From Pyrinomonadaceae bacterium (lineage in GTDB: Bacteria > Acidobacteriota > Blastocatellia > Pyrinomonadales > Pyrinomonadaceae), in contig DASVVZ010000256.1 in assembly GCA_036389875.1 (NCBI GenBank), positions 1 to 57,245 on the forward strand: 57,245 nt of DNA. The letters are read 5' to 3'. The translations under genes were made by a program, and so were the position numbers. This document shows, piece by piece, positions 1-53,696 of this stretch; positions within the stretch are counted from its first letter, which is position 1, and each line of letters begins with the position of its first letter. A model generated the notes under the pieces. It searched no databases. It was not told where the DNA came from and saw nothing but the letters and a program-made list of their open reading frames with translations.

Positions 1-2499
1 ACAGAGCATTTCTCCGATCATGAGGTTGACCTACGGAAGAAGCTCGTCGAATGGCTTAAAGCCGAGGGGGTAGAGGTTAGGTGTGACGTAGAATGCGCGG
101 GCGGGGCTGCGGACGTCGTAACGGAGGAAGCGATCTTTGAAATCAAGCACGCGCTTACCCTTGCCGATTTCTATAAGACCTCGAACGATCTGCTCTCTTA
201 CTGGCGGGCGCTTGTCAATTCGGAGCAGCTGGACGATGGGGCCGACGCTATCATCCTGGTTTGTTGTGCGGAAGATTTGAATGCGCTCAAGGCCGCGGCA
301 GACACGGTAGCCGTCATGACGCTGGAAGAGATAATGGTCCCTTCCCCTCCTGAATTCTTCGAGTCTCTCTTAACCCAAGCCAATCAGACAGGCTCAATCG
401 CTGCATTCAGGAAGCTCATTGAAGATAACCAACTCCAGGATGTAACTATTGACAGAAGATTTACCCCGTCACAACGCACCAAGCTCCATGAAGCATTGGA
501 TGCATGTAATGTTTGTGTGTACGCTGGCCTGTCGGATTCTGAAGAGACGAGCGGCATTCTCACACAGCAGATGGATCCGGCCAGGATTAAGACCCACCCA
601 TCGCTTTTAATGCGCGCGCAGGGCCTTGACATAGATCACGTGGAAGAACTGGAGGCGGGCTACAGGGCCGGGCGGACCTACCCTCCTGCTGACATTTTCT
701 TCGACGGTGAAAATTATTGGCTCGCAGACGGAAACCACCGACACGCGGGAGCCACCAGGGCCGGCAAGCTTCTCGACGTTACAGTCCATCATGGGACGTT
801 ACGCGATGCCATCAGATTCGCGCTTGAAGCCAACGTCGAACACGGCCTGAAGCTCACCAACGACGACAAGCGGCTGAAGGTCGTGACGCTGCTATCCGAC
901 CCGGAGTGGTTCAAAGAGAGCGACACCATTCTGGGCGGGATTGCCCATGTTACACAGCAGTTCATAAGCAGCGTGCGCCGTGATCTCGTACCCCTGCTGC
1001 CGGCGCTGGAGCTCAACGAAGGGCAGGAGACGGATGAGACTTTGGCCTCAATGTTGAATGTTCCTGTTGGGCTCGTACGCGTGGTGCGCAGAATACCGAC
1101 GGATGAGCGCGCTTCCCTGACCCAAAATATTTTGAGTGATGACGGGCGCAGGCGCGGCGCCGATGGGGTTGTCAGGTCTATTCCGTCGAAGCCAGCCCAG
1201 CCTCGCGCTGAGGAACCCGAATTATTCTCAGAGGAAAGCGATGCGGCGAATGAATTCGTTGAGGAGACTTCAGCCCAGGCAGCTGAGGCCGCGCCGGCGG
1301 AAAGCAGCGATGAGATCGTCGAGGCCCAAAGGCCCGGCGCAAGTGATGCAGCAGCCGATTCGGTGTCGTCCTCGCCCGAGGCCACCGAACATGGCACTGC
1401 GCTCGCCAAACCTTCCGACGGCGCGCGTGCTGAATCTACCACATCCGGCGGCGGCGAAGCACTCACAGAACAACTCTCGCCGTCATACAGGCTCGCCTCT
1501 CTCTTGAAGAAATGCCCAGAGGGCATGACGACAGAGGAAGTACTGGCGCAGGGCTTCACCATGCATGACATCAACCAGGCCCGGACCGCGCGCGAAATCG
1601 AGCGCCACGAAAACGGGCGATGCTTCTACGTGTGGAAGCCTGCGGACGTCGTCTCGGCCCTCGAAGAATATGGAATGCTCTCCAGACTGGAGCTTGAAGA
1701 TCTCGGCTGCCAGTCCTATGTCATCAACGCGACGCTCTCGGAAGGCCTCATCAGCCAGCCTGAGACTGGCAAATTCACACTCCCCAAAGAGGCTTCCGGC
1801 GACCGTCCCGTGGAGCGAGCCGCTTCCGAATCCCGTCAAGAGACGAGGCCGGAGGCACCGGCCGAGAAGCATCCCGCACAGCAGGCCCCTTCCTCGAGCG
1901 CGCAAGTACAATCGGCGCCCAGGCAGGCTCCGCCCGTCGGGCTCGCAATCGAAAAGGGCCTTAAGAACAGGAAGATGATCATAGGCTTCACATTCATAGC
2001 CGGACTCAAGGGTAAGGTGCAGGCCACGGTAAACGTCGCAGACAACGTGCAGGGGGCAGGGCGTGAAGTCATCCCGCTTGAGGAACTGGTGCTGCCCGAC
2101 CGAGTCCTGAAAATGATTGACTATCAGCTTGGCACCAACATTTTCAATAAGGCAGACACCACCGCGGCTGAGAAAGCGGAGCCCAAGCCCAAAGTCGAGC
2201 GGATATTGGAAGGCTTGAAGGGGGCGAAGGACTTGGAGGCCCTTAACAGGTTGGCCGAGCACTATCACATCGGCAGTTCTAATTTCTATTCGCGGTTTGA
2301 TGCGAAGGACGCCAAGCGTATCACCGACGCGCTGGCCGCGCAGAAGAAAAAGTTTTCACCTGCCTCCAAGAAGAGAGTCTCCACCAAAAAATCCGCGACT
2401 AAGAAGCCGTCGGCGCGCGCGACCAAAGTGTCTGCGAAGAAATCATCCACTAAAGGCTCTAAGAAAGGAGCGCGCTCAAGTACCCGCGCCCGTGCCTGA
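1..2499 (+). CDS. ParB/Srx-like nuclease-domain protein (PRTRC-type) with N-terminal PD-(D/E)xK-like module and Lys-rich C-terminal tail; 5' end probably outside the window
   Basis: Frame 1 has no stop from nt 1 (track ORF starts at TTG 277; first ATG at 316). D-x8-ExK motif ADVVTEEAIFEIKH (112-147). ParB box YWLADGNHRHAGATRAG (DGNHR 727-741). Acidic/Pro/Ala low-complexity centre. Tail KKKFSPASKKRVSTKKSATKKPSARATKVSAKKSSTKGSKK. Confidence 0.75.
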   Translation, partial: TEHFSDHEVDLRKKLVEWLKAEGVEVRCDVECAGGAADVVTEEAIFEIKHALTLADFYKTSNDLLSYWRALVNSEQLDDGADAIILVCCAEDLNALKAAADTVAVMTLEEIMVPSPPEFFESLLTQANQTGSIAAFRKLIEDNQLQDVTIDRRFTPSQRTKLHEALDACNVCVYAGLSDSEETSGILTQQMDPARIKTHPSLLMRAQGLDIDHVEELEAGYRAGRTYPPADIFFDGENYWLADGNHRHAGATRAGKLLDVTVHHGTLRDAIRFALEANVEHGLKLTNDDKRLKVVTLLSDPEWFKESDTILGGIAHVTQQFISSVRRDLVPLLPALELNEGQETDETLASMLNVPVGLVRVVRRIPTDERASLTQNILSDDGRRRGADGVVRSIPSKPAQPRAEEPELFSEESDAANEFVEETSAQAAEAAPAESSDEIVEAQRPGASDAAADSVSSSPEATEHGTALAKPSDGARAESTTSGGGEALTEQLSPSYRLASLLKKCPEGMTTEEVLAQGFTMHDINQARTAREIERHENGRCFYVWKPADVVSALEEYGMLSRLELEDLGCQSYVINATLSEGLISQPETGKFTLPKEASGDRPVERAASESRQETRPEAPAEKHPAQQAPSSSAQVQSAPRQAPPVGLAIEKGLKNRKMIIGFTFIAGLKGKVQATVNVADNVQGAGREVIPLEELVLPDRVLKMIDYQLGTNIFNKADTTAAEKAEPKPKVERILEGLKGAKDLEALNRLAEHYHIGSSNFYSRFDAKDAKRITDALAAQKKKFSPASKKRVSTKKSATKKPSARATKVSAKKSSTKGSKKGARSSTRARA
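1119..1138. repeat. Degenerate copy of the 20-bp palindrome family (GACCCAAAATATTTTGAGTG), inside the parB-like ORF
   Basis: Two mismatches to GACTCAAAATATTTTGAGTC. It is the only copy well inside a coding region. Confidence 0.5.
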
Positions 2500-2540
2500 A
2501 ACACCGCAGAGAGAACAGCATCCGAGGAGGATAAGCATTC

Positions 2541-3020
2541 ATGGCAGTCGTAAAAATTGAAGGTAAAGAAGTGACGCTCCCCGACGAGATCGTCGCGCTC
2601 GGCAAAGAGGCGGTGCGCACGGCTCTTGAGGCTGACTTTCCCGGCGCGGCGAACGCCGACATCCAGATTGAAGGTAAGAAGGGCGGTGGCGCTCCAGCGG
2701 TCGTGACTGTCTCCAAGCGAGCAGCGCCGAAGCAGAATGTGCCGGCACTGGCTGGCAAAGCCACTTCACCTCTCGCGCGAGTCGTCGAATCGCTACTTGG
2801 TGCCCCTGACTATGTAAACCCCGCGATAACGATGGCGGCCGCCTGCCAGTTGGCCGAAACGAGGGGCGACAAGGAATTCTTCGGCCAGATGGCGCGCCGC
2901 GGCGAAATTGAGCGCGCCATCGTGGAGGGGGAGAGAGAGGCTAAGGCTGTACATCGCGCGCTTGCCGTCCTCGGTCAGTCGAAGCCGGCATCGTCTAAGA
3001 CTGTTCCCTTAGGATTCTGA
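2541..3020 (+). CDS. Ubiquitin-like (beta-grasp) candidate with C-terminal extension (PRTRC protein C-like position)
   Basis: N-terminus MAVVKIEGKEVTLPDEIVALGKEAVRTALEADFPGAANADIQIEG resembles small ThiS/MoaD/Ub-like modifiers. GAGGAGG Shine-Dalgarno lies upstream. It sits first in the E2/JAB/E1 cassette. C-terminus is ...TVPLGF. Confidence 0.5.
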   Translation: MAVVKIEGKEVTLPDEIVALGKEAVRTALEADFPGAANADIQIEGKKGGGAPAVVTVSKRAAPKQNVPALAGKATSPLARVVESLLGAPDYVNPAITMAAACQLAETRGDKEFFGQMARRGEIERAIVEGEREAKAVHRALAVLGQSKPASSKTVPLGF

Positions 3021-3023
3021 GAG

Positions 3024-3977
3024 ATGGAAGCTTTAACCACACAGAGCGCGGCCTCCATGCTGCTCGCCGACAAGTCGAAGCTCGGCACGACGGACGCGCG
3101 CTTTTACCTGGCGGGGCGCATGCGCACCAGGACAGCGGCAGGCGCCGTGGAGTATCTGAAGGTACTCTCCACTCATAAGAAGGAGGCTTGGGACGCGCGC
3201 GTAAAACTATCGCTTGACCTGATGAGCATTTACCGCGACCTCTACCCGCGACATTATGCGGCCTCGCAATCGCCAGCTTTTTCGACGGCGCGCGAGCATG
3301 AGTTTTACCGGCTAGTCAACGAGCACCTTTTCCCGCTGGTCGTAGCCGGTGACCGCAGGCACTCGCTCCTTGAGAAGTTAATCGAGCGCGACCCGGACTT
3401 TCTGTTGCCTGCTATCCCCGTCATGGGAACTCAACAGCACGACTGGCTACAACTGGGAGGTTGCTGCCCCTGGGACAATATCCAGCTCGTTTTCCAGTTG
3501 GTGCTGGTACTTGCGGGCCACCCGCTCGGCAGAAGGCATCGCAGCGAGTTTCTCAACTCATACGGGCTGGACGAATCACAGGTCGCGCCGCAATTGGGTG
3601 CGTACGCCTGGACGCACTTCAATTACTGGTGCGCGGTGGCCGGGAACTGGCTGAGCTACCTTCCCCTCGCATTCAAGTTCGTCGGTTACAAGACCGGCTC
3701 GCTATGGCTCGACATTCCGCCCGGGCAGGGGCCCGTGCTGCTGCCCTGGACGCGCCGTAATGTAGGCATGCTCTTCCTCCACCGACGTCAGGCCGAGGAG
3801 ATAAACCAGCAGGTGCTTGACTTCGACCGTTGGCTCCGCGTGACAGGACGGGTCGGCGTCATCCTTGCGATCCAGATGTGGAACGACGCCTACGAGATGG
3901 AGGCCGAATCGGGTCTCACGGGCGTGATGAGGGCGGAAGATTTACAGGACGCTTTAGAGAGGTTGGAGAGAGAATAA
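3024..3977 (+). CDS. Conserved-cassette protein of unknown function (PRTRC protein F-like position)
   Basis: 317-aa ORF starting 3 nt after the upstream stop; its stop overlaps the next start (TAATG at 3975-3979). No motif recognised. Confidence 0.55.
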   Translation: MEALTTQSAASMLLADKSKLGTTDARFYLAGRMRTRTAAGAVEYLKVLSTHKKEAWDARVKLSLDLMSIYRDLYPRHYAASQSPAFSTAREHEFYRLVNEHLFPLVVAGDRRHSLLEKLIERDPDFLLPAIPVMGTQQHDWLQLGGCCPWDNIQLVFQLVLVLAGHPLGRRHRSEFLNSYGLDESQVAPQLGAYAWTHFNYWCAVAGNWLSYLPLAFKFVGYKTGSLWLDIPPGQGPVLLPWTRRNVGMLFLHRRQAEEINQQVLDFDRWLRVTGRVGVILAIQMWNDAYEMEAESGLTGVMRAEDLQDALERLERE

Positions 3978-4726
3978 TGGAAGAGAACCAGCGATTACTC
4001 ATGCCCCGGCAGGACGAACAGTCCTGCCCGACAATTAAATTCTTCGACGGCCAGTTTCTGTTTACGATGGTGACGCTACAGGGCACGAAGATTGAAGCCC
4101 TCCGGAGCGAGGCGGCCGTTCGTGAGGCCTTCACCAACATCCCGGTCGATACGGGCTGGATCAACCAGGACACCACCTGCCGTTCGGTCGTGCGCTGGGG
4201 CGATGGCGGCCGCGGCGAGTGGGCCGTGCTCTACGTACCGCCCGGGCTTCATAAGCTTGAGCTGACGACGGACGCGAAGGCCATTGCCGACAATCTGGAG
4301 CGCATCACGGCGCCTTTGCCCTCCCTCATCTTCTTCGGCGCCGGGACGAAATACTGGCTCTGGGCTCTGAGGGCACCGAAATTCGAACCATACAACGATC
4401 TCATGCGTGCTCCCCTGCCCAACGTCTTCGAGGACGGGGAAGTCTGCTGGGGACCGCACAAGCCACCGGCGTGCACCGGGCGCGCGATTGTGAACGCATG
4501 GGAGCTATTTATCTCCACGACCTTCAGCAACCACGCCGCTTCCGGCAAATCCAGGAAGTATGACGAGGATGTACGCGATGGGCTACGCGAAGCCGCGCGC
4601 TCGGGAGAAAGCCCCTCCTATCCGTCTGAAGACCTTATCCGCTACATGGGGACGGGCCTGAGCATTGACCAGGTGATTAGGGCGTTTACTAAGGATGGCG
4701 AGATTGCGCCCTCAGAGGAAGAATGA
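3977..4726 (+). CDS. E2 (UBC)-like protein, candidate catalytic Cys157
   Basis: Start chosen at the ATG overlapping the upstream TAA. LPNVFEDGEVCWG (Cys codon 4445-4447) resembles the E2 motif HPN..G.IC. Flanked by Ubl-like, JAB and E1 genes. Confidence 0.6.
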   Translation: MEENQRLLMPRQDEQSCPTIKFFDGQFLFTMVTLQGTKIEALRSEAAVREAFTNIPVDTGWINQDTTCRSVVRWGDGGRGEWAVLYVPPGLHKLELTTDAKAIADNLERITAPLPSLIFFGAGTKYWLWALRAPKFEPYNDLMRAPLPNVFEDGEVCWGPHKPPACTGRAIVNAWELFISTTFSNHAASGKSRKYDEDVRDGLREAARSGESPSYPSEDLIRYMGTGLSIDQVIRAFTKDGEIAPSEEE

Positions 4727-5385
4727 TCACGTCGGGTTTCAATTCTTACCAGTTCGCGCTGCGCGGTCAGCCCCTGCCGGAGGTGGATGACTCCATGGCC
4801 GTCTGCTACTTAATCGGCGCAAACGGGGTGCTCGCGCGCTCGCGCCGCCCCGGGCTGGAGGTGGGGTTGCCCGTCGGCGTCCACTTCCAGCAGCTCAGGG
4901 GCCTGGAGCCCGTCACGCCTTACGTGAAGTGGGACCTGCCGCGTGTTCCGATGCAACTGGTAGAGCTAATGCTCACGGTCTCGCGCGCGTGCGCTTCTCC
5001 AGAGCCGACAGAGGCGCTCTTCTACCTGAACCATGGCGAGCCGCATACCAGTGACGCAATCATAAGCGAAGGCGGTTGGAACCTGGAGGCACCGCCGCAG
5101 CGCGCGAGCCGGGAGTGGGTTGAACCCGAAGAGACTGGTGCGGGCTCTTCTACCGAGCGCGCGTTGATAGAAGTCCACAGCCACCATTACATGAGGGCGG
5201 AATTCTCTCCCGGTGATGACACCGACGAGCTGGGCTGGTTCCGGGTCTATGGGGTGATCGGCAACATCTTCGAGAGGCCTGAGTTGCGCGTGCGCGTCTC
5301 ACTCTTCGGCCACGGGTGTGAATGGCCGGCCTCCGAATTCTTTGAACTGCCGACTGAATTAAATGACTGCTTGAAAGGTAACTAA
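4723..5385 (+). CDS. JAB/MPN (JAMM) metallopeptidase
   Basis: Complete JAMM motif H-S-H-x7-S-x2-D in EVHSHHYMRAEFSPGDD (5176-5217), with an upstream Glu (PTEALFYL). ATGA overlap with the E2-like gene. Confidence 0.8.
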   Translation: MITSGFNSYQFALRGQPLPEVDDSMAVCYLIGANGVLARSRRPGLEVGLPVGVHFQQLRGLEPVTPYVKWDLPRVPMQLVELMLTVSRACASPEPTEALFYLNHGEPHTSDAIISEGGWNLEAPPQRASREWVEPEETGAGSSTERALIEVHSHHYMRAEFSPGDDTDELGWFRVYGVIGNIFERPELRVRVSLFGHGCEWPASEFFELPTELNDCLKGN

Positions 5386-5388
5386 GAG

Positions 5389-6351
5389 ATGGGAAAGAAG
5401 GGTAAAAAATTTCAGGGCCGCAAGGCGCAGCCCCGGCCAGTAAAGACGGAGGTGCTCCCCACCCTCGACACGAACTATCTGAAGGCATCGGCGGTAAAGC
5501 TCCCCGACTGGGAGTTCGTGCAGATTGTGCAGGTGGGTGCCGGTGGTGGCGGCTCCTTCATGGCGATGCATATAGGGCGGCTGATGCACTCGCTATACAG
5601 GATGGGCAAAGCCTCGCACTTAACTATCGTTGATCCGGACATAGTGAAGGAGGAGAACGTCGGGCGATCGCTCTTCTGCGACGCGGAGTTCGAGGCCGCG
5701 GTGCCGAAAGCGGAGGCCCTGGCGCGCCGCTACGGCCAGGCGTGGGGCTTGAACGTCAGCTCTTACGTGGGCGAGTTCGACGAGAGCATGATTCTCGGCC
5801 GTGAGCTTACAGTAGTGGTTGGCTGCGTAGACAACGCGCGGGCGCGTCAGACTATCAACGACGTGCTCAAGCACAACCCCGAAGATCCAAACGAGCAGCC
5901 CCCCTCCTTCTGGTGGCTCGACAACGGCAACGTCAGCAACTTCGGCCGCGTGCTCTTAGGCTCGGCCTACTCCGCCGAGCACGTGCGTGGGGCATTCCCC
6001 GAGCCCGGAAAATGCGTAGCACTCCCAAGCCCCGCGATTCAATATCCGGGCCTTTTAGAGCCGCAGCCCGAAGAGGAGGCTGCGAGCGCCGACGGGATGA
6101 GCTGCGCGGAGCGGGCGGCGGCGAACCTCCAGAGCCTGAACATCAACGCCGCGATTGTCATCCAGGCCGCAGACATGCTCACGAGACTCCTGGTCACCAG
6201 AGACCTCAAACGCTTCGCGTGCGAAGTGAATCTGTCGTCGGGCGTAATGAAAAGCTCTTACTGCACTCCCGAAGAAGTGGCGCGCGCATCGCACAAGCCA
6301 ACTTCCTTTCTGACGAAGCAAAACAGGCAGGCGGCAGTAAATTATAACTGA
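5389..6351 (+). CDS. ThiF/MoeB/E1-like adenylyltransferase
   Basis: Rossmann loop VQVGAGGGGSF (5533-5556), then DPDIVKEENVGRSLF and VGCVDNARARQTIN, as in the ThiF/E1 family. Confidence 0.85.
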   Translation: MGKKGKKFQGRKAQPRPVKTEVLPTLDTNYLKASAVKLPDWEFVQIVQVGAGGGGSFMAMHIGRLMHSLYRMGKASHLTIVDPDIVKEENVGRSLFCDAEFEAAVPKAEALARRYGQAWGLNVSSYVGEFDESMILGRELTVVVGCVDNARARQTINDVLKHNPEDPNEQPPSFWWLDNGNVSNFGRVLLGSAYSAEHVRGAFPEPGKCVALPSPAIQYPGLLEPQPEEEAASADGMSCAERAAANLQSLNINAAIVIQAADMLTRLLVTRDLKRFACEVNLSSGVMKSSYCTPEEVARASHKPTSFLTKQNRQAAVNYN

Positions 6352-6441
6352 CCAAAATAAGGTAAGAGTTGAGAAAAAGGGCGCGGCCCCCGTTTGCCTG
6401 TGAAGACTTTCGAGGGCCGCGGTCTATGCCTTTCGGCGTGA

Positions 6442-6678
6442 TTATCGACGCAAGCGTTTGACGGAGCGTATTACCTGCGGAGCGTTTTGCAGCACCAGAC
6501 GGGCTATCTCTGTTACGTTATTGTCGTTCGGGTTGGAGTAAATGCCGTAGATTCCGGTGATGAAGAAGAAGGTCAGGATGGTGAGTCTCAGACTTTCAGC
6601 CAGCATGTCGAAAATACGACGGGGTTGTCGGTTGGACGAGGCGTGGTGGATCCACGTCGCCTTAGATCTAGTTTTCAC
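6442..6678 (-). CDS. Small membrane protein (hypothetical)
   Basis: GTG start preceded by AAGGAAA. One hydrophobic helix, LTILTFFFITGIYGIY. Confidence 0.35.
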   Translation of the reverse strand: MKTRSKATWIHHASSNRQPRRIFDMLAESLRLTILTFFFITGIYGIYSNPNDNNVTEIARLVLQNAPQVIRSVKRLRR

Positions 6679-6910
6679 GATAGTTTCCTTTGCCCCATTG
6701 CAGGGCGGTCTAGAGGGTGTGAGCTACAAACGACACAAGAGGGGCTTGCGGAGAATTGAGGTTGCTCTCAAAAGCTAATGTGCCATTCAGATTAATGACC
6801 GGGAAAGGACTCCCCGGCTAGGCCCCTGAGGGTAAGAGCGCGTGCTCTTTCGGAGCCGGCGGCAAGATAACAATAATTGAACTGCTTGACAAGTGGCCGA
6901 ACGTCAGGTG

Positions 6911-8030: not shown

Positions 8031-8345
8031 TTATTTGGTCGTGATATTAATTATTTTAGATTTCGGATCCCAGCTAATATCGCCTTGGGTAGACCCCGCT
8101 CCCGGATTAAGAGGCTTTCCGTCTACATACACATTCCAAAAGTCTCTATCGAACCAAGTAGAGTGATATCCTCCCGTGCTCATAGACACGTTAGATCTGA
8201 GTACTGCCTTGCCTGTAGATGGATCGTAGAGCTCGAGAACTCCTTCAGCTTCACTAACTCGCGAGAAAACACTTTTGATGTAGCTTGTATCAGCTACCAC
8301 AACTGACTTGCCGACGGGCGTGTTAGTTACGTCTATATCTCCCAT
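8031..8345 (-). CDS. Hypothetical protein
   Basis: 104-aa ORF abutting the upstream rep-like gene. AT-richer than the phage core. No motif recognised. Confidence 0.5.
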   Translation of the reverse strand: MGDIDVTNTPVGKSVVVADTSYIKSVFSRVSEAEGVLELYDPSTGKAVLRSNVSMSTGGYHSTWFDRDFWNVYVDGKPLNPGAGSTQGDISWDPKSKIINITTK

Positions 8346-9319
8346 TATTTCTCTCCTAATCTTTCATGCCTGCAGCGCTTAATTCCCTTCTCAGGCCCCT
8401 CCGGGTAATACCAGGTAGACCCGCCGCAGTCGGGGCAAGCCTTGATCTGTTCTTCAGTCAGGGCCTGTGCGGCAGGCGTCTGGGGAGTTGCAGTTTGCTC
8501 GCTGGCGAGCTGGGCCTTGTCCTTTTTCCAGAGACGCCGCCGCAGGTGCTCGGCCAAGAAAGCAGGAAGGCTAGAGACGGTCGTGCGTGCTGCGGCTATC
8601 TTCGCTTCCATTACCAGGACTTCGGCCAGCTCCCTCCACCGCTCGTTCTCGGATGGAGACGGGTCCCTGCCTGTGATCTCCTTTGCGGCCTGTTTCAATA
8701 TTTCGTTCAGACCGGCCAGCGCAGCGTCATCATCAATTCTTTTGTCTTTAATACTTGTATTTAATTGTCTGGTAGAATTTGACTCAAGTACTCCACTACT
8801 TTCGACCCGAGTACTAGAGTGGTCTGGTACTCTAGTACTAGACCTATCGAGAATAATATATTCATCCCCAAGAGGGTCGTTGTTCCTGCTTATCTTCTTA
8901 ATAATACCTTTTGATATAAGACCGAAAAGGGCAATGCGAACAGTCTTCGCCGAACTATAGCCGGTTCGCTCTTTTAATTTGGAGACTCGGATCTGCCTGC
9001 GATCTGTGTTGAAGCCAACCGTGAGGCGCAGGAGATGGTCCAGTACTTTGCTTTCCGCAGGCGTTAAGGTTCTATCCAGACTGTCTACAGTCTCGTTGGG
9101 CTTCCTGTAAAAGTTCGACTGTGGTACTAGACCGCTCTGGTACTCTGGTACTAGAGTAGTAGAGAAAGGCTTTTCCTCAATAATTGGCGGCGTTTCAAGA
9201 TTATCGCTCTGGGACTCTAGTACTAGAGTACTAGAGTCTTTTTTCTGCTCCTGTTCCTGTTTCTTACGCTCGCTTATATCGTAGAGTGCGGCGTATCCCC
9301 GCTTATTGGATTGACTCAT
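8345..9319 (-). CDS. Replication-initiator-like winged-helix protein with C-terminal zinc ribbon (paralogue of 53693-54628)
   Basis: wHTH-like segment TGYSSAKTVRIALFGLISKGIIKKISR. C-terminal CPDCGGSTWYYPEGPEKGIKRCRHE. Iteron-like DNA repeats lie inside the gene. Confidence 0.5.
   Translation of the reverse strand: MSQSNKRGYAALYDISERKKQEQEQKKDSSTLVLESQSDNLETPPIIEEKPFSTTLVPEYQSGLVPQSNFYRKPNETVDSLDRTLTPAESKVLDHLLRLTVGFNTDRRQIRVSKLKERTGYSSAKTVRIALFGLISKGIIKKISRNNDPLGDEYIILDRSSTRVPDHSSTRVESSGVLESNSTRQLNTSIKDKRIDDDAALAGLNEILKQAAKEITGRDPSPSENERWRELAEVLVMEAKIAAARTTVSSLPAFLAEHLRRRLWKKDKAQLASEQTATPQTPAAQALTEEQIKACPDCGGSTWYYPEGPEKGIKRCRHERLGEK
8783..8844. repeat. Iteron-like cluster A (GTACT-containing units) inside the rep-like gene
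   Basis: GTACT cores at 8788, 8811, 8827 and 8835 (for example GAGTACTAGAGTGG, GGTACTCTAGTACTAGACC). An AT-rich stretch follows (GAGAATAATATATTC). Confidence 0.5.
9121..9238. repeat. Iteron-like cluster B (GGTACTAGA / AGTACTAGAG units) inside the rep-like gene
   Basis: Units start near 9123, 9139, 9147, 9219 and 9227. The last two form a tandem TACTAGAGTACTAGAG. Confidence 0.5.
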
Positions 9320-10118
9320 TCACCACCTCTGCTGTGATTAAATCTTCCTCCATCATCCCGCCGATAGTGATAGCGTTCATGCAGACTTTAACCACCTCGC
9401 GGGGGACGCCTTTTGAAAGCTCATAAATTAAATTCAGCGCATCTGGCGCGAAAAGAGGAGCATGGCGTCCTACGACAGAAAGTCGAAAGGCAATCATATC
9501 GGCAGTCTCTTCAGGAGTCAGAGGATCAAGAGTAGCCACGGCTGCGGCGCGTGAAACCAGGGCCCGCTTGAGTTTCAGCTTGTTTCGCAGGTTATTCTGT
9601 CCGGCGAGTATAATTTGAACCAACTTCCGGTCGTCACTTTCAAAGTTGGTAATCTGCCGTATCAGCTCAAACTGCTCGCCCCGCATCATTTGCGCCTCAT
9701 CAATAAGAATGAGCACGTTCCGATCGGCGGCAAACCTATCCACAAGATGGCCCTCCAGCTCCTGCATCTGGTCAAGTTTCGACGGACGACGAGGAAGCCC
9801 GAATTCATCCGTTAGCCGCTTTAATAGTTGGAGGGCAGTGGGGTAGTCGGGGTTGGTGACAAGCAGCGTCTCGTACGCTTCCTGGTCTTTATAAAGGCCG
9901 TAGAGGCGGCGAATAAGAGAGCTTTTCCCATGACCGACGTCGCCATACAGGACAGCAAATCCCTGCCGGCGCTCCATGACGTAGCGAAGTTTTGCCAGAG
10001 CAGCTTTATGCTGATTGGTGAGATATAAAAATCTGGGGTCTGGTGAAAGGGAAAAGGGGTCTTCTGCTAAACCATAACGACCTAACACCTCGTCGGCAAT
10101 GGTCATTGCTTTGGCCAT
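9303..10118 (-). CDS. AAA+ ATPase, ExeA/GspA-TniB-like (AAA_22 type)
   Basis: Walker A YGDVGHGKSSL, Walker B VLILIDEAQ, then ILAGQNNL. N-terminal EDPFSLSPDPRFLY is typical of ExeA-like proteins. Overlaps the rep-like gene by 17 nt. Confidence 0.8.
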   Translation of the reverse strand: MAKAMTIADEVLGRYGLAEDPFSLSPDPRFLYLTNQHKAALAKLRYVMERRQGFAVLYGDVGHGKSSLIRRLYGLYKDQEAYETLLVTNPDYPTALQLLKRLTDEFGLPRRPSKLDQMQELEGHLVDRFAADRNVLILIDEAQMMRGEQFELIRQITNFESDDRKLVQIILAGQNNLRNKLKLKRALVSRAAAVATLDPLTPEETADMIAFRLSVVGRHAPLFAPDALNLIYELSKGVPREVVKVCMNAITIGGMMEEDLITAEVVNESIQ

Positions 10119-15352: not shown

Positions 15353-15553
15353 ATGTCTCGTTGCTCCCATTGCCGTACTAAAATCGGCACCTTAACCGCC
15401 ATCTGTCCCATGTGCAGAAACAGGCGGCCACTGTTTTATACCTGTATTGCTATGGGTATCATCCTCGCCTTTCTGGTCACGCTGTACTGGAGCGGCTCTC
15501 TGGGTGATTTCGTCCCCGTAAAGAAGACTAAAACATGGATAAAGCATAAGTAA
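15353..15553 (+). CDS. Small zinc-ribbon plus transmembrane protein
   Basis: CSHCRTKIGTLTAICPMCRN followed by FYTCIAMGIILAFLVTLYW. Its stop overlaps the methyltransferase start (TAATG). Confidence 0.55.
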   Translation: MSRCSHCRTKIGTLTAICPMCRNRRPLFYTCIAMGIILAFLVTLYWSGSLGDFVPVKKTKTWIKHK

Positions 15554-16251
15554 TGAGCACGGTAAGCAAACAGCTTGTTGATAATTACGCTGGCTACTAT
15601 CACGGCGAGAGCCGGTGGCGTGCTATTGGTGCCAGAGATAAAGCCGCGAATATAATTAAACTTTGCTCCGGCATTCCTCATGAAACTATTCTCGACATAG
15701 GTGCCGGGGAGGGTGCCGTTCTTTCCGAGCTTAGAGACTTTGGTAAAGAACTCCACGCGATTGAGCTTTCCCCTTCGGGCGCCGAAGCAATTCAACAGAG
15801 AAATATCCCGGGACTTAAAAGCGTTCAGGTGTTTGACGGCTACAAGATACCTTTCCCTGACAAATCGTTTAACCTTGCCTATCTTTCTCACGTCATTGAG
15901 CACGTTGAGCACCCGAGGGCGCTTCTTTACGAAGCAAAGAGAGTCGCGGAGTATGTTTTCGTTGAAGTGCCTCTTGAAGATACCCTGACGAGAAGAAAAG
16001 ACTACGTCGCTACTTCTGTCGGGCATATCAATAGATACAGCCCTAACTCTATCCGCTGGCTGCTTCAGTCCTGTGATTTGAGAGTCGTTAAACAAATCGT
16101 TACAAATCCTTCGTGGGGTGCTTATAAGTTCAAAACAGGAATGAAAGCCCTCCCTCGTTATGCTATGAAGGAAGGGCTTCTTCGCCTTCTCCCTTCTATT
16201 GCCACTCGTATATGGAGTTACCATTCAGCGCTCCTCACTGCCACACGTTAG
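15553..16251 (+). CDS. Class I SAM-dependent methyltransferase (Methyltransf_11-like)
   Basis: Motif I ILDIGAGEGAVLSEL. Post-motif FPDKSFNLAYLSHVIEHVEHPRALLYEAKRV. Confidence 0.85.
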   Translation: MSTVSKQLVDNYAGYYHGESRWRAIGARDKAANIIKLCSGIPHETILDIGAGEGAVLSELRDFGKELHAIELSPSGAEAIQQRNIPGLKSVQVFDGYKIPFPDKSFNLAYLSHVIEHVEHPRALLYEAKRVAEYVFVEVPLEDTLTRRKDYVATSVGHINRYSPNSIRWLLQSCDLRVVKQIVTNPSWGAYKFKTGMKALPRYAMKEGLLRLLPSIATRIWSYHSALLTATR

Positions 16252-19039
16252 CCCTCAAAGTACCTGACGCCAGATTCACAGTTGCCCCGGTATTATTAAT
16301 AAACACCACTCTCACGGTATCAGGCGATACGACATAAGCCCTGACCGTCCATCCCGATACTGCTATCGAAGAATGATCCGCGTGGGCCGCGTCTCCGACT
16401 ACGGCCCCGGTGACAGTGACGGTTGTCGAAGTGGAAGCGCCATTTGCTAAAGATGGTGGATCGTAAGTTGTCGTACTGGATAACCTGTCCGTTCTTTGTC
16501 TTGTGATGGGCCATACGAAGGCTTTCAGGGTGCCGGAGGCTAAATCTGCCGTCCCTCCAGTACGATTAACTATCGTCACTGTCACGGTGTCCCGTGCTGT
16601 CACGATCCCCGATATGTCCCAACCCGAAGCAGTTGCCGTGTCCAGACTCACAGCCGAGGGGTCGCCTGCGCTGGCACCCGGTACCGTAATGGTCGTAGTG
16701 GTAGACGAGCCGTTAGTAAGGGAGGGAGCATCGTAGGTGGCCGTCCCTGATAATCTCTGCGAGCGGGCCGAAGATATAGCCGTCACCGCAAGGTCGTAAA
16801 CATCAGCCCGGTTGTTCTCAACCAGTGTGTTGGTGACGCCCGCGCCGTAAACTCTTATGTCGTCGGTGACATGGCCCGTTGAAGTGTTGCCGACGACTCT
16901 TACATCATCCGTGAGCGTCGTCGTGCTGGTATTCCAGACCACAATCCCGTGATAGCCGTATGGAAGGAGGTTGATGCGTCGGCAGTTATTTAGAGAAACG
17001 ACAGTGCGAGAGCTTGATCCGCGAACGATTATATCCCCAAGCTTTACCGCATCGAGGTTGTTCGTCCACTGGCTATCGGTGATGATATTTTCAGTAATAA
17101 CATTATCAACGCCCTGTGAAAATATGCCGTACGTCCCTGAATGGCTTATTCGATTTCCGGAGATCAACCCCCTTGCCCCGTGAACAGTGATGCTGGAATC
17201 CTGGCTATCCTCTATTGTGTTGTCGGTTATTCTATACTGCTCTCCATAAACACTAATCTGGTCAGACCATCCACGTCTTAATGTGTTACCTGAAATCCTG
17301 ACTAATCTTGTGCTGGCCTCTAGGTTAATCGGGTAATTAGGATGTGAATACAATACTTCGTATCTAGTGCCTGAAGGGGGTGTGGCGGAGTTTCCGTCGA
17401 AGTCCCTCCACCTGTCCACACTGACAGTCGTTCCGGTTGAAGAGGAAACGCTGCCGAGCCACAATCCGTAAATTGTGAACGCGGTGTTAGTTGCCGGTCT
17501 GGCTACCGGGAGCCTGTCAGTATCGGAGAGCCAATCCTCGACTCTCAGAACCGTGTTTGAATCAACACTTGAGACCACGGCGAAGGCTGAGCCCGCACGA
17601 ATTATGTCCCCACGTTCTACCGCCCTCCCCATTGGATTTGAAGTGGAGTTGAAATTAACAGAGGTGTCCGTAATCTTTAGTCTGTCGTAAGTAACGGTAG
17701 CTCCCGAAGTTACTTTAACAGGCATGATTCGGACGGTATCGCTTGCGGATATTGCGGAAAAAGCAGCCGCGGAATCGGTCAGTACCGTACCCGTGTACGT
17801 ACCCGTAGAGCCTGTGTATTTCTCTTTGAGCGTCCACCACCCCGCGTTAAAAGTATTATTTTCTATATTGATGTTTTCTATAAGGTCGGCATACGGCCCC
17901 CCTTCGGTTCCGTTGGAATCACCCACTACGGCGTCAGTCAGATACCGAAAAGTATTCCCCCGGATGGTTATATTACTGTTGGCATTTTGCATGATTATGC
18001 CGACCGAGGAGCCGGGAATACCATCTGTCTGAAACAGATTATTTTCAATCGTGACGTTGGACATTCCGTTTAAGCCGACAGCCCCGCCGCCCCCGGGCTT
18101 CCAGAATGCACAACGGCTCACACGAAACGTTCCGCCCATCAAACTGCGGTTCGTGCTGATGGTCGAAGTGAAGGTGGCGAAGCTGTTATCGAAGCCAATA
18201 TCTTCAAACGCTATATTGAAATTCGAGCCGCCTGCGGGGCGTTGAAAGACACTTGAGGCCGAGGTCGTTCCGGCTATAATTGTCGCCCCCATCCCGGCCC
18301 CTTTAATCGTTAAGTTGTCACGGCTCATCTCTATCCCCCCGGTGGTATGCCAAATGCCCGGAGAGAAATAGAGAGTTGAAGACTGGCCGTTTGTGGGAAT
18401 GGAGTTCTTCGCGTAATTTATCGCTGCCGTATCGGGAGTGGCGTAGAACGCCTTAGCTCCCGAAACGGTAGTAGATGCCGCCAGAGTCAGAACAAAGTTT
18501 GAGCCGGAGCATGATGCTATTGTAGTGACTAAATCCGCAGCACCAGCGCCCTTAACGTTGATAGCCTTCCCCACGTCAGTCGGAGCGCAACTGGTCGCGC
18601 TCGTCATGATCGTGGAAGTGGCCGATATAGCTGCATCTGACAGCCTTACGCCGTCATGCTGTGCGCCGAACCACTCCGGGTAAACCTCTCTGGGGGACAC
18701 GGAGAAAGAAAGAGTAGCCCCCACACCCATGTAAAAAATCTGCTTGCTTGGCGGGTTAGCTATTCTTGCCAACGTGAGCGAGGTATTAACCTGAATCCCT
18801 GTTCCATCCGTGTTGTCTAAAGTAATGTTTGATGGAATCGTTAGGGTATCAACCGCGCACCTTGAGCCCCTCTTAAAAGGGAGCTTTATAGTTCCGGTAT
18901 TAGAGCCGATTGAGGCAATGATTGCCGAAAATACAGCAGTGTCATTTGACCCTGAACAGTTAGGTACGAATACGGTTTGTTGCGCTCTTACGGATGAAGA
19001 GACCAGAAGTAAAACGAACAATAGAAAAAGCTTTTTCAT
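16235..19039 (-). CDS. Right-handed beta-helix (pectate-lyase-fold) protein with N-terminal signal peptide and two C-terminal tandem ~90-aa repeats; tailspike/depolymerase-like
   Basis: Start moved to the ATG at 19039 (MKKLFLLFVLLLVSSSVRAQQ). PbH1-like repeats (ISGNTLRRG, ITDNTIEDSQDSSITVHG, ISGNRISHSGTYGIF, ITENIITDS). C-terminal repeats SQRLSGTATYDAPSLTNG... and TDRLSSTTTYDPPSLANG... Confidence 0.7.
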   Translation of the reverse strand: MKKLFLLFVLLLVSSSVRAQQTVFVPNCSGSNDTAVFSAIIASIGSNTGTIKLPFKRGSRCAVDTLTIPSNITLDNTDGTGIQVNTSLTLARIANPPSKQIFYMGVGATLSFSVSPREVYPEWFGAQHDGVRLSDAAISATSTIMTSATSCAPTDVGKAINVKGAGAADLVTTIASCSGSNFVLTLAASTTVSGAKAFYATPDTAAINYAKNSIPTNGQSSTLYFSPGIWHTTGGIEMSRDNLTIKGAGMGATIIAGTTSASSVFQRPAGGSNFNIAFEDIGFDNSFATFTSTISTNRSLMGGTFRVSRCAFWKPGGGGAVGLNGMSNVTIENNLFQTDGIPGSSVGIIMQNANSNITIRGNTFRYLTDAVVGDSNGTEGGPYADLIENINIENNTFNAGWWTLKEKYTGSTGTYTGTVLTDSAAAFSAISASDTVRIMPVKVTSGATVTYDRLKITDTSVNFNSTSNPMGRAVERGDIIRAGSAFAVVSSVDSNTVLRVEDWLSDTDRLPVARPATNTAFTIYGLWLGSVSSSTGTTVSVDRWRDFDGNSATPPSGTRYEVLYSHPNYPINLEASTRLVRISGNTLRRGWSDQISVYGEQYRITDNTIEDSQDSSITVHGARGLISGNRISHSGTYGIFSQGVDNVITENIITDSQWTNNLDAVKLGDIIVRGSSSRTVVSLNNCRRINLLPYGYHGIVVWNTSTTTLTDDVRVVGNTSTGHVTDDIRVYGAGVTNTLVENNRADVYDLAVTAISSARSQRLSGTATYDAPSLTNGSSTTTTITVPGASAGDPSAVSLDTATASGWDISGIVTARDTVTVTIVNRTGGTADLASGTLKAFVWPITRQRTDRLSSTTTYDPPSLANGASTSTTVTVTGAVVGDAAHADHSSIAVSGWTVRAYVVSPDTVRVVFINNTGATVNLASGTLRANVWQ

Positions 19040-19040
19040 G

Positions 19041-20129
19041 TTAAGGCTCCAGTAATGCCCAACCGACCACGCCATTGTCGCCGCCGTTTGAACTTGTGAT
19101 TGTGAAACTCAAGCCAGGTGTCCTTGCGGAGATTCCGAGCGTGCCTGAAATGTTCGCGTCCTGTCCTGTTGGGTGAATGATGGAATTAGCCGTGACGATA
19201 GAAGATGCAACGACTACCGAGCCATCAACCATCGCTGCGTTACCTATCGCTTTAGGAGCGAGGTCCGCCACGGCGTTTATTGAGCTAAGAAGAGAAGTGT
19301 CAGCGGCAGCCCTTGCCGCCACCTCGCTTGTAATATTGGCCTGAAGTGTCGTATCAGCACTTGCTCTTGCCGTCGCTTCATTCGTGATGTTTGTTTGTAG
19401 TGCAGAATCCGCCGCCGCTCTTAGAGTTGCTTCAGCGCTGACAGCACTTGCAACCTGTGCATCAGTAGCAAAAGCAGAATCTAAGTCACCTAAACTTAGT
19501 ATTCCGTCTTCATCAATTACTAACCCTTCACCGATTCGGACATGGCCTAAATCGTCAGCAGAAGCTATAAAGGACGTGTGGGCATTAAATGCAGACTGCA
19601 GCGCTTGGTCTACCTCCTCCCGCGCACCGACCTCAGTGTTAAGTTGAGCGGTAGTGGCATAAGGCGACAGGTCGATATCTGCGAGATGTTCATCCGTATA
19701 GTCATTGGCTGAAGCAAGGGTGGCAGAGTCGCCATCAGTTCGCGCCTCCGATTCAATTTCAGCATGCGAATCCACAAGTGCCAGCAACAGTTCCTGTGTG
19801 GAAGGCGCAGACCCGACCTCACTCGCCACGCGCAGCGGGCCTATATCAATCGGCTCTCCTGGCGGTAAGAAGAAGGAGAAGATGTGCTCTTCTTCCTCAT
19901 AGTATCTATACTTTGTCTGCTTTATGCCGCTCGACAGGCCGGTTGAATTACACCAAAGCTCAACCTGAAATTTACCCTCTTCATCAGTAACTGTAGAAAC
20001 GCTTGACTTGGGGAATTGTGCCTCCGCAGTGTAGTTGCTGTTCGGAACGGAGAATCTGATACGAGCCCCCACCCAGGGAGCGCCGTTCAGTCGTCTTACT
20101 GTGCCTCTGACTATTCTGGTCTCTATCAT
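19041..20129 (-). CDS. Tail fibre-like protein
   Basis: Follows baseplate J. Central Ala/Thr-rich repeats (AEATLRAAADSALQTNITNEATARASADTTLQANITSEVAARAAADTSL). Confidence 0.6.
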   Translation of the reverse strand: MIETRIVRGTVRRLNGAPWVGARIRFSVPNSNYTAEAQFPKSSVSTVTDEEGKFQVELWCNSTGLSSGIKQTKYRYYEEEEHIFSFFLPPGEPIDIGPLRVASEVGSAPSTQELLLALVDSHAEIESEARTDGDSATLASANDYTDEHLADIDLSPYATTAQLNTEVGAREEVDQALQSAFNAHTSFIASADDLGHVRIGEGLVIDEDGILSLGDLDSAFATDAQVASAVSAEATLRAAADSALQTNITNEATARASADTTLQANITSEVAARAAADTSLLSSINAVADLAPKAIGNAAMVDGSVVVASSIVTANSIIHPTGQDANISGTLGISARTPGLSFTITSSNGGDNGVVGWALLEP

Positions 20130-51613: not shown

Positions 51614-51985
51614 TTAGACCTTTCCTTTGTGACGCATCCGCAGCCAGTTAAAACCGGCGTCCCTCAGCTCCAGAAGCCGGATGGCCAGCGTAGCCCCGTC
51701 GCGCTTACGGCGCCCAATATCCCTCCATGATGGGCGATGTTCCATACGTCTATAGGCCAAGCCCCAGACAGCCAAAGTCAATATCAATCGTGAGTAGAAC
51801 CAGTAGGTGGTGCGCTTGCCTTCGCCCACAGCCACCACGACACCCTCCAGCGGCTTCTCCTTGGCGTTATCCGGTATGACAATAAGGCTTTGTTCCTCAC
51901 TCTCATCCGCGCGACGGATGATGACTCTATCCTGAAGAGGGGTGCCGATTTGCTTTGTTGCTTGTTTGTTCATTGTCTTCTCCAT
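51614..51985 (-). CDS. GroES (Cpn10)-like N-terminal half fused to an unrelated hydrophobic/basic C-terminus
   Basis: [42 protein letters not shown] aligns by eye with GroES (PL.DRV.v.r.e.e....GI.iP..a.ekp..G.VvAvG.G). Similarity is lost after that point. Confidence 0.55.
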
Positions 51986-53486: not shown

Positions 53487-53696
53487 CTATCGATTTCGTA
53501 TCCTTTTCTTCGGCGCTCCCTTGATACGAACTGTGTTGGGTTTGACGTGATATTCAGTCAGCCTCTCCAGAACCTCCGTGATGGCCGCGAGCAGGATTTC
53601 ATCCGAGTAGCCAGTCACTTCAATGGTCGCGCGGCTCACGCGGTAAGGCGATCCGTCATTACGCTTCTCGACGACCTTTTTCCTGATTATGATCAT
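53487..53696 (-). CDS. Hypothetical small protein
   Basis: 69-aa ORF overlapping the rep gene's stop by 4 nt. Confidence 0.45.
   Translation of the reverse strand: MIIIRKKVVEKRNDGSPYRVSRATIEVTGYSDEILLAAITEVLERLTEYHVKPNTVRIKGAPKKRIRNR

Follow-up and report, generated by a model that had tools for sequence, protein, structure and literature searches.

A divergent PRTRC/6d-type cassette for putative ubiquitin-like conjugation inside a probable temperate phage of Acidobacteriota

The window analysed here, a stretch of 57,245 nucleotides (nt) from contig DASVVZ010000256.1 of a Pyrinomonadaceae bacterium (Acidobacteriota), carries at its left end (1-6351) six open reading frames (ORFs) which are all encoded on the plus strand, run in one direction and are tightly packed. 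Taken together, they very probably constitute a ubiquitin-like protein (Ubl) cassette of the PRTRC (ParB-Related, ThiF-Related Cassette) type, located inside a phage genome. The first ORF (1..2499, +) corresponds to the C-terminal 832 codons of a ParB/Srx-like multidomain protein; frame 1 is open from base 1 and the complete gene occurs in a separately assembled locus, L005. It is followed, always on the plus strand, by a 159-residue protein in which a Ubl domain is fused to a domain with a Gly-Phe (GF) tail (2541..3020; recognised from an alignment, BLASTP and an AlphaFold2 (AF2) model), a 317-residue all-α protein occupying the PRTRC_F position (3024..3977; BLASTP, alignments and AF2), an E2-like protein of the Prok-E2_D/PRTRC_B type made of 249 residues (3977..4726; Pfam and NCBIfam), a JAB/JAMM metallopeptidase of the PRTRC_A type made of 220 residues (4723..5385; NCBIfam and Pfam Prok-JAB), and a ThiF/MoeB-type E1-like adenylyltransferase of the PRTRC_ThiF type made of 320 residues (5389..6351; NCBIfam and Pfam ThiF). 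Two junctions overlap, TAATG at 3975-3979 and ATGA at 4723-4726, and the 3-nt gaps at 3020/3024 and 5385/5389 both read TGAGAGATG; the cassette genes thus keep overlapping or 3-nt junctions, frameshifts are absent, and a GAGGAGG ribosome-binding site occurs 5' of the 159-residue gene. This packed layout had been described, with the same junctions, in an earlier note made from the letters of the window, and was recovered at every coordinate. The order C-F-B-A-ThiF is shared with the canonical cassettes that Ralstonia phage Dina and the Sulfuricystis plasmid pSTJ1 carry.

The three enzymes provide the firmest part of the assignment. Their best NCBIfam matches are all PRTRC models, namely PRTRC_ThiF (TIGR03736) for the E1 (E 8.6e-36, 123.5 bits, the ThiF model reaching only E 7e-8), PRTRC_B for the E2 (E 2.5e-13, 49.9 bits) and PRTRC_A for the JAB peptidase (E 1.6e-9, 37.6 bits), although the scores of all three remain under the NCBI curated cut-offs of 144.75, 131.45 and 101.8 bits, respectively. 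In Pfam, the E2 is recognised by Prok-E2_D (PF14460; E 1.7e-22, 80.4 bits for a gathering score of 25) and the peptidase by Prok-JAB (E 3.7e-4), the latter protein being also aligned with the PRTRC_A of phage Dina at 96.9% probability (hhalign). As profile matches, they are far above chance and decisive for these three proteins.

The catalytic residues of the three enzymes, every one of which is intact in the window copies, were then located and followed among homologues. In the E2, the candidate active cysteine, Cys157 (nt 4445-4447), stands where it had been placed by the earlier note, in a stretch consisting of LPN (146-149) followed by G-E-V-C157-W-G, with F183-S-N-H186 further downstream; the motif LPN..G.(I/V)C.G resembles the eukaryotic HPN..G.IC, LPN replacing HPN. 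C157, N149 and G159 are kept in 48/48 homologues and P146/P148 in 46-48 of the 48, and the set of invariant residues did not change upon addition of canonical PRTRC_B proteins to the alignment. The conserved downstream histidine is H186, in a motif F-(N/S)-x-(H/D) which holds either His or Asp across the lineage; H161 (of CWGPH), considered for this role, was ruled out because its position is variable. The JAMM motif, H152-S-H154...S162..D165 (nt 5176-5217), which was likewise correctly read at first sight, is complete, its four residues being kept in 41/41 homologues and E97 in 37/41; the peptidase possesses an additional N-terminal α+β domain of ~100 residues, in which a strictly conserved Arg or Trp, such as the corresponding domain of 6d carries, was not seen across the 41 homologues. 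In the E1, the loop VGAGGGGS, also noticed earlier, spans residues 49-56 (nt 5533-5556) and belongs to a series of features comprising GxGGxG (50-55), D82-P-D84, N90, R93, K107 and D148-N-x3-R153. These nucleotide-binding and catalytic residues, together with Cys239, are kept in 44-46 of the 46 homologues, Cys239 itself (motif SCAE) being present in all 46; it is probably the thioester cysteine of the enzyme.

The 159-residue protein had been taken for a Ubl whose first ~65 residues look like a β-grasp. By a chain of homology this N-terminal part is indeed PRTRC_C-like, even though its β-grasp is of low confidence, but the protein as a whole turned out to be a fusion of two domains instead of a tailed Ubl. 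The Ubl domain (nt 2541-2735, residues 1-65, ending with KRAAPKQ) is connected by a variable linker to a GF-tail domain (nt 2793-3017) made of four helices and terminated by an invariant VPxGF. Residues 4-42 resemble a 70-residue Ubl of a Pseudanabaena plasmid (BLASTP E 1e-3), residues 82-159 resemble an 84-residue Planktothrix protein ending with ..PTGF (BLASTP E 8e-8), and this GF protein lies adjacent to a related 63-residue Planktothrix Ubl with the C-terminus ..GSKG; because BLASTP splits the two halves onto separate proteins, the fusion is considered as a PRTRC_C-like Ubl joined to a small helical GF-tail protein. The AF2 model shows a β-β-α-β-β topology for the N-terminal domain with a predicted local distance difference test (pLDDT) score of only 43-65, and a confident four-helix C-terminal domain (pLDDT 77-94). 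The standalone Ubls of related viral contigs match TIGR03738 (PRTRC_C) out to the terminal Gly, and those of sister lineages end with ..GxKG.

A survey of 1.84 billion representative proteins yielded 245 clusters, the best 150 of which were classified as 117 Ubl-GF fusions, 23 Ubls with or without another extension, and 10 GF proteins alone. A Gly-Phe C-terminus occurs in 116 of the 127 GF-containing proteins, and the residue at the Ubl/GF junction is Gly (the canonical ..KG) in 96 of 108 representative clusters. The window copy and P0001, a relative with 92% identity to it, have Gln at the junction, and Gln or Ser occurs there throughout the closest homologues, P0001-P0008; APK(Q/S) is conserved among at least 8 homologues at 63-92% identity, and the Ubl of a standalone relative (L030) ends with ..TTKH. 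Depending on the replicon, Ubl and GF occur as adjacent separate genes, e.g., on cyanobacterial plasmids and some viral contigs, or are fused. The PRTRC_C of phage Dina similarly consists of a Ubl with a C-terminal extension. The small GF-tail protein therefore looks, from such comparisons, like an overlooked member of the system. On the Sulfuricystis plasmid pSTJ1 (L104 9364-9588), an unannotated gene located between PRTRC_C and the F-position gene encodes a 74-residue protein ending with ..IVPPCF, which resembles the Gly-Phe tail proteins; canonical PRTRC may possess an overlooked component.

The two remaining proteins are more divergent. Like the Ubl, neither the ParB nor the 317-residue protein has any direct match in Pfam, NCBIfam or PHROGs even at E 10, and the 317-residue protein, in which no motif had been recognised beforehand, has only 15 close homologues among 5.8 billion proteins. 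It resembles the proteins encoded upstream of the E2 on cyanobacterial and Chlorohelix plasmids (BLASTP E 1.6e-9 to 1e-6), and its conserved residues include Y70, S81, E91, E93, F103, P104, T224, D230, W242, W270 and W286. The AF2 model, built from 15 sequences, is all-α (pLDDT 86.3, predicted template modelling score 0.76). With its conserved charged residues (E91, E93, D230), it fits the 'rapidly diverging helical protein' described in 2006.

The ParB ORF is truncated by the left edge of the window. Its gene starts 533-554 nt upstream of base 1, the complete protein comprising 1010-1017 residues of which the first ~180 codons lie outside the window. Within the window, an N-proximal conserved domain (19-330) is followed by a ParB/Srx core (559-1191, with DGNHR at 727-741) and by a basic, Lys/Ala/Ser-rich tail starting at about 2335; among 14 homologues, ADGNHR and HGL..DDKRL are invariant. 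A profile of the core matches the sulfiredoxin 6ky4 (E 0.0014), the DGNHR motif falling on the SGCHR of Srx, the homologue P0040 bears Pfam ParB_N, and a related protein of locus L042 resembles Noc/ParB (E 8.6e-6). Membership in the ParB/Srx group, as anticipated for this upstream ORF, is accepted because of the sulfiredoxin match and of these ParB/Noc or ParB_N matches of relatives, the window protein giving no direct family match and none to TIGR03734. The N-proximal domain (residues ~190-295 of the full ParB) carries the motif HE.DLR together with a pattern of the type D..(E/D)x(n)E.K, recalling PD-(D/E)xK nucleases; a nuclease of this type found no support, the profile giving no match in PDB and the motif not being invariant. 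Similarly, a PRTRC_E-like domain at the ParB C-terminus was dropped, hhalign giving 0.1-0.7% probability against the PRTRC_E of Dina.

The earlier note had placed the cassette on, or directly next to, a temperate phage. The first part of this statement stands and the second does not, the cassette being inside a circle of 67,113 bp. Contig k141_775101 (67,254 bp) has an exact 141-bp overlap of its end with its start (k = 141), at window 16695-16835; the break of a second contig (67,014 bp), which lacks 99 nt inside the baseplate-J gene, falls at window 20534/20634; and L005 and L009 connect the right end of the window to its left end. The cassette is assigned to the phage and not to a host flank because these differently broken contigs form one circle and because relatives share the synteny, which reads immunity genes, small ORFs, ParB, Ubl, F, E2, JAB, E1, then (xis-)int; one relative encodes xis (HTH_17) and int on the same strand after its cassette. 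A host flank or a chimeric assembly, with an att site in 6352-6910 and the cassette outside the prophage, is excluded by the three contigs converging on one 67,113-bp circle and by the conserved synteny. The 9,868 bp of the circle lying outside the window contain a partial SNF2 helicase gene, a cold-shock-domain gene, a tetratricopeptide repeat gene, an HTH_31 plus Peptidase_M78 (ImmR/ImmA-like) pair, four small ORFs and the start of the ParB gene. Elsewhere, the window encodes the proteins of a contractile-tailed phage, among them tail sheath, baseplate, major head protein, portal and large terminase. The carrier is a temperate phage of 67.1 kb, probably from Acidobacteriota (Blastocatellia/Pyrinomonadaceae). 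The circular map could stem from an episome, from the induction of a prophage or from a virion genome that is circularly permuted.

Downstream of the cassette and convergent with it lies the gene of a tyrosine recombinase, the phage integrase (6911..7840, -; Pfam Phage_integrase E 1.1e-23, plus an N-terminal SAM-like domain). A gap of 559 nt (6352-6910) separates the stop of the E1 from that of the integrase and contains a small minus-strand ORF (6442-6678; 78 residues, or 54 in the JGI call) with a hydrophobic segment; neither a terminator-like site on the plus strand after the E1 nor the attP site was located. The window, scanned for tRNA genes and a terminal repeat, has neither. Further along the phage occur two replication-initiator-like genes (PHROG RepO-like; 8345-9319 and 53693-54628, both on the minus strand, the second with Pfam HTH_36), which is unusual in a phage, and, next after the first initiator, an AAA ATPase gene (9303-10118) whose best PHROG is a DNA transposition protein (E 5e-23), the clamp loader match being weaker. 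Two gene calls clash, a JGI S-adenosylmethionine-dependent methyltransferase (Pfam Methyltransf_11/23/25; 15553-16251, +) against an ENA ORF of 262 residues (15436-16224, -). A Cpn10/GroES-like gene (51614-51985, -; Pfam Cpn10) shows GroES likeness in its N-terminal half only. On the minus strand, 16235-20129 encodes a 946-residue protein with a pectin-lyase-like PHROG match and a 362-residue protein with K1-lyase_C; such proteins of the tail-fibre/depolymerase type suggest a capsule or exopolysaccharide receptor.

The control region of the cassette can be followed in L005, where window base 1 corresponds to position 4613. A predicted σ70 consensus promoter (12/12; L005 2556-2583) lies between the M78 gene and the small ORFs, ahead of the ParB gene and the cassette, and an 11/12 promoter points the opposite way, in front of the replication-side operon; the promoter/repeat regions (L005 1538-1613 and 2544-2609) are situated outside the window, ~2.0-3.1 kb before its base 1. 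The two divergent promoters have in common a perfect 28-nt inverted repeat, which includes the -35 element, and a 15-bp palindrome, GTAG(T/C)GAATCACTAC, is found downstream of each, with just two copies in the 21 kb of L005 and none in the window (chance expectation 0.01). Since two outward-facing promoters with a common operator flank the HTH_31/M78 immunity genes, the arrangement is read as a switch like that of the lambda pL and pR promoters, and the cassette operon would accordingly be repressed in the lysogen and fire early along with the replication operon. Upstream of ParB, consensus promoters with operator-like palindromes in the spacer occur in relatives too.

With respect to distribution, the cassette family is almost exclusively found on phages, plasmids and integrative and conjugative elements (ICEs), and its plasmid homologues lie amid replication and DNA-processing genes. 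Within a set of 50,697 cultured-phage records, a related E1 occurs in seven, and canonical PRTRC in three distinct phages (Ralstonia Dina, Ralstonia YO105_4 and Burkholderia BgVeeders33; ~28% identity); the cassette as such has no match in this set by blastn, nor the E2 by tblastn. IMG/VR contains 46 loci with relatives, about 33 of which have E2-JAB-E1 together with an upstream Ubl and/or helical gene. The closest genomes are metagenome-assembled genomes (MAGs) of Blastocatellia/Pyrinomonadaceae with 52-64% identity, apart from one labelled Clostridia, and homologues of the ParB and helical proteins are likewise named from Blastocatellia/Pyrinomonadaceae. Among annotated replicons, plasmids of cyanobacteria and Chlorohelix come closest. 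ParB directly upstream is limited to the clade of the window and a few others. Extra small genes are inserted between F, E2, JAB and E1 in some relatives (L074 6337-6720, 7645-8283 and 9332-9958; L026 12022-12216 and 12900-13310); one encodes a 136-residue protein with a DnaJ-type CXXCXGXG zinc-finger match (E 2.2e-6), and most of the others have no family match. On the Planktothrix agardhii plasmid p1 (L002 6946-9870), which encodes Ubl, GF, helical protein, E2 and E1, the JAB gene is absent between E2 and E1.

Taken as a whole, the data are best explained by a divergent PRTRC/6d-type Ubl conjugation cassette located in the early, integrase-proximal operon of a temperate phage, a reading to which a probability of about 0.6 is attributed. 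Its parts are not equally secure. The identity of the cassette as PRTRC-type, which rests on the matches to hidden Markov models (HMMs), the canonical gene order, the component-wise fit to 6d and the active sites invariant in 41-48 homologues, and its position inside the phage, which rests on the joined contigs, the phage hallmark genes and the synteny of relatives, are hardly in doubt; the conjugation mechanism, deduced from catalytic residues that are intact and invariant, stands somewhat better than even; a role serving the phage early in infection, proposed in preference to lysogen defence, partition, decay or sulfur transfer because of the early-promoter layout, the distribution restricted to mobile elements and the DNA-handling neighbours, is tentative and falls a little short of even. 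The earlier interpretation as a ParB-linked PRTRC-type cassette, analogous to Bil and borne by a temperate phage, is supported; the location inside a circular phage, the predicted early promoter with its putative shared operator, the Ubl-GF fusion and the helical protein devoid of structural match are new.

The proposed mechanism may be depicted as follows. The repressor-controlled early promoter, co-regulated with that of the replication operon, would transcribe the cassette operon, which is genetically coupled to the large, presumed DNA-binding ParB/Srx protein. The 159-residue proprotein would be cut by the JAMM peptidase at the Ubl/GF junction, releasing a β-grasp Ubl and the helical GF-tail protein, an idea suggested by the occurrence of Ubl and GF either as separate genes or as a fusion and by the ..KG conserved inside the fusions, the JAMM site being intact. 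The ThiF-type E1 would adenylate the C-terminus of the Ubl, hold it as a thioester on Cys239 and hand it on to Cys157 of the E2, from which it would be attached to lysines of target proteins, possibly with the aid of the helical 317-residue protein; the JAMM peptidase could reverse the modification. Host or phage proteins, possibly associated with DNA, would thus be modified at entry or induction, the benefit lying in establishment, takeover or counter-defence and not in protecting the lysogen. A bolder version, which must be regarded as doubtful, sees in the phage Ubl machinery an early weapon or establishment device: the processed Ubl-GF would be attached to host (e.g., defence) proteins or to DNA-bound proteins recruited by ParB, and the clade of the window would either activate a non-canonical C-terminus or have an E1 using the Gly-Phe tail.

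Several observations weigh against this interpretation. The lost junction Gly of the window copy is the chief unexplained point: the Ubl ends with ..APKQ and not with ..GxKG at the very position that needs adenylation, so that canonical activation may not apply to it, or the cleavage site may be elsewhere. The β-grasp of the Ubl domain is suggested by the topology of a low-confidence model and by the homology chain, and the Foldseek search of the Ubl-GF model, a check proposed in the earlier note, returned nothing significant, only weak matches to ubiquitin, ThiS and PB1 with target-normalised template modelling scores of 0.4-0.59. The same search against PDB and BFVD gave no structural match for the 317-residue model, which hhalign also fails to relate to the PRTRC_F of Dina, and the E2 profile found no UBC match among PDB sequences. 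ParB linkage occurs in only about 11 of 42 related loci. The best genome match of the E1 (64% identity) lies on the 337-kb contig CAZTUB010000006.1 (L074) of a MAG labelled 'uncultured Clostridia', a label conflicting with the assignment to Acidobacteriota. The promoter and operator are predicted from consensus and repeats, for a host whose own promoters are uncharacterised, and lysogens could still express the cassette through read-through transcription that starts in the immunity genes. As to the Clostridia label, the contig may be mis-binned or mislabelled; the remaining close matches are all from Acidobacteriota.

The possibility of read-through leads to the question of defence. In a Bil-like anti-phage or superinfection-exclusion system borne by the prophage, the lysogen would tag a structural protein of the invader and block its assembly; the parts list (Ubl, E2, JAB, E1) equals that of Bil, prophages often bear defence genes near int, the immunity genes occur upstream on the same strand, which makes expression in the lysogen possible, and all bacterial E1/E2 systems to which experiments have so far assigned a role (CBASS type II, Bil) are antiviral. 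Such a function nevertheless appears unlikely for a cassette which has its own operator-bearing early promoter paired with that of the replication operon, which in a relative is found upstream of xis-int in the same direction of transcription, and whose family is nearly confined to phages, plasmids and ICEs, beside replication genes. In addition, PADLOC finds no match for E2, JAB and F, and the single ThiF-type E1 of 320 residues is unlike the BilD architecture. A second alternative is a module for partition or maintenance of an episomal prophage, the ParB protein binding phage DNA and the Ubl machinery regulating segregation or copy number. A ParB/Srx-fold protein with a basic DNA-binding tail, the circular assembly, the two RepO-like initiators and the label of 'partitioning cassette' given to PRTRC in one paper (PMC13366799) agree with it, but the label is explicitly untested, most related phage cassettes have no ParB gene nearby, and no ParA/ParM was found among the called genes beside the cassette, the whole phage not having been searched for one. 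Moreover, an integrase is present, and the xis-int of a relative adjoins a non-phage-looking DUF420 gene, suggesting integration; this explanation is accordingly held to be improbable.

The loss of the junction Gly raises another question, that of a decaying or repurposed remnant in which a Ubl devoid of terminal Gly is not conjugated and the enzymes act elsewhere or on nothing. The Gln of the window and of P0001, and the Gln/Ser of P0001-P0008, as opposed to the Gly of 96/108 clusters, together with the standalone relative ending with ..TTKH, are what one would expect of it. Decay is, however, difficult to reconcile with E1, E2 and JAB whose catalytic residues are all intact, with overlapping or 3-nt junctions kept free of frameshifts, and with the conservation of APK(Q/S) in at least 8 homologues (63-92% identity), which argues for selection; it is given little credence. 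Finally, a sulfur-carrier or cofactor pathway, combining ThiF/MoeB with a ThiS/MoaD-like protein and involving no protein conjugation, could account for the weak matches of the E1 to ThiF models (E 7e-8). This grouping of the E1, which the earlier note had singled out for checking, was not found: the best match is PRTRC_ThiF (E 8.6e-36), the adjoining genes encode a JAMM peptidase and an E2 whose Cys is invariant, and thiamine or molybdopterin genes are absent from the called genes within ~10 kb, none having turned up elsewhere in the 67-kb genome. On the basis of this best HMM match and of a context of immunity, DNA-handling and phage genes, it has been set aside as extremely improbable.

If the bolder version given above is true, a bacterial virus would for the first time be seen to turn a ubiquitin-like cascade against its host, and the 20-year-old PRTRC/6d would acquire a function. 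If phages carry the full cascade in a repressor-controlled early operon, Ubl tagging may be employed by phage and host alike in their conflict, which would parallel the hijacking of ubiquitination by eukaryotic viruses. Experimental handles are offered by two carriers that can be cultivated, Ralstonia phage Dina and Burkholderia phage BgVeeders33, and by the mutable invariant residues (C157 of the E2, C239 of the E1, H152/H154 of the JAB). The Ubl-GF proprotein, which is widespread and was not found described in the literature, predicts a cleavage event, and the helical protein combines a confident model with the absence of any structural match in PDB and BFVD.

Among the known systems, PRTRC/6d is the closest. 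The '6d' operon type was defined, and conjugation predicted for it, by Iyer, Burroughs & Aravind in 2006 (PMC1779556), so that its bioinformatic description, like the annotation of canonical PRTRC in cultured phages, is already known. CBASS type II, Bil and Bub ('6e') have been characterised since (PMC11601596, PMC11601603), real protein conjugation having been shown for all three related families and an antiviral role for CBASS and Bil. A 2026 paper reports PRTRC in the Burkholderia gladioli prophage AB2 and in phage BgVeeders33 as an unstudied 'partitioning cassette' (PMC13366799). The literature yielded no experiments on 6d/PRTRC, the sole one of the E1/E2/JAB families of 2006 with a separate Ubl gene for which no experimental study was found. 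The window shares with PRTRC (TIGR03734-03742), '6d' and Prok-E2_D the order Ubl, helical protein, E2, JAB, E1 preceded by a ParB-family gene, the invariant Cys of the E2 in the absence of the classical His of HPN, the presence of an N-terminal domain before the JAB (though no strictly conserved Arg or Trp was seen in it), and carriage by mobile elements. It differs by E1, E2 and JAB scores short of the curated cut-offs, and by the lack of any NCBIfam match to PRTRC_E and PRTRC_D among the cassette proteins (0.1% for the ParB C-terminus against the PRTRC_E of Dina). The Ubl, small, standalone and endowed with a conserved terminal Gly in PRTRC/6d, is fused here to the GF-tail and devoid of that Gly; the 'absolutely conserved' downstream His of the E2 is His or Asp in the lineage of the window; the helical protein has no detectable similarity to PRTRC_F; and the ParB is a multidomain protein of 1,017 residues.

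The canonical PRTRC phages (Dina NC_055026, YO105_4, BgVeeders33 and prophage AB2) resemble the window by their temperate host phage and by a cassette located beside the immunity/early region. They differ by an E1 of 28% identity, an E2 not detectable by tblastn, hosts belonging to the Betaproteobacteria and the possession of PRTRC_E, no ParB being annotated beside the cassette of Dina. The plasmids Pseudanabaena pPg_04, Planktothrix p1 and Ca. Chlorohelix NZ_CP128402, which are the closest annotated relatives (38-42% identity for E1, 29-38% for E2 and 34-39% for JAB), have the same order Ubl, GF protein, helical protein, E2, JAB, E1, but their Ubl (..KG) and GF are separate genes, no ParB occurs directly upstream, and Planktothrix lacks the JAB. 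In eukaryotes, UBA52 and RPS27A are fusion precursors of ubiquitin and ribosomal proteins. With its N-terminal Ubl and a protease expected to release both parts, the Ubl-GF protein resembles them by analogy only, the junction Gly being missing in the window copy.

Bub ('6e') and type II CBASS Cap2/Cap3 ('6b') are, like the window cassette, bacterial E1/E2/JAB relatives located on mobile elements. Bub consists of a JAB-E1 fusion without catalytic Cys associated with a poly-Ubl, whereas the window has separate JAB and E1, a conserved Cys239 and a single Ubl; the E2-E1 fusion of type II CBASS conjugates a CD-NTase, whereas E1 and E2 are separate genes here and the 67-kb genome contains no CD-NTase. 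In PADLOC, the E1-E2 matches are weak and restricted to the Rossmann region, and the sole match to Bil is a partial one of the E1 to BilD (E 0.0055), with no significant match to BilA, BilB or BilC and nothing for Ubl, E2, JAB and F. Nevertheless, as an analogy, the parallel with Bil drawn in the earlier note is sound: type I/II BilABCD also comprises Ubl, E2, JAB and E1, and presumably uses the same chemistry of adenylation, thioester and isopeptide. The architecture and the setting differ, since BilD is a large IAD-AAD-CYS E1 and the E1 of the window a single ThiF-type domain of 320 residues, and since Bil protects the host, whereas the window cassette would be an early-operon module of the phage equipped with ParB and helical partners.

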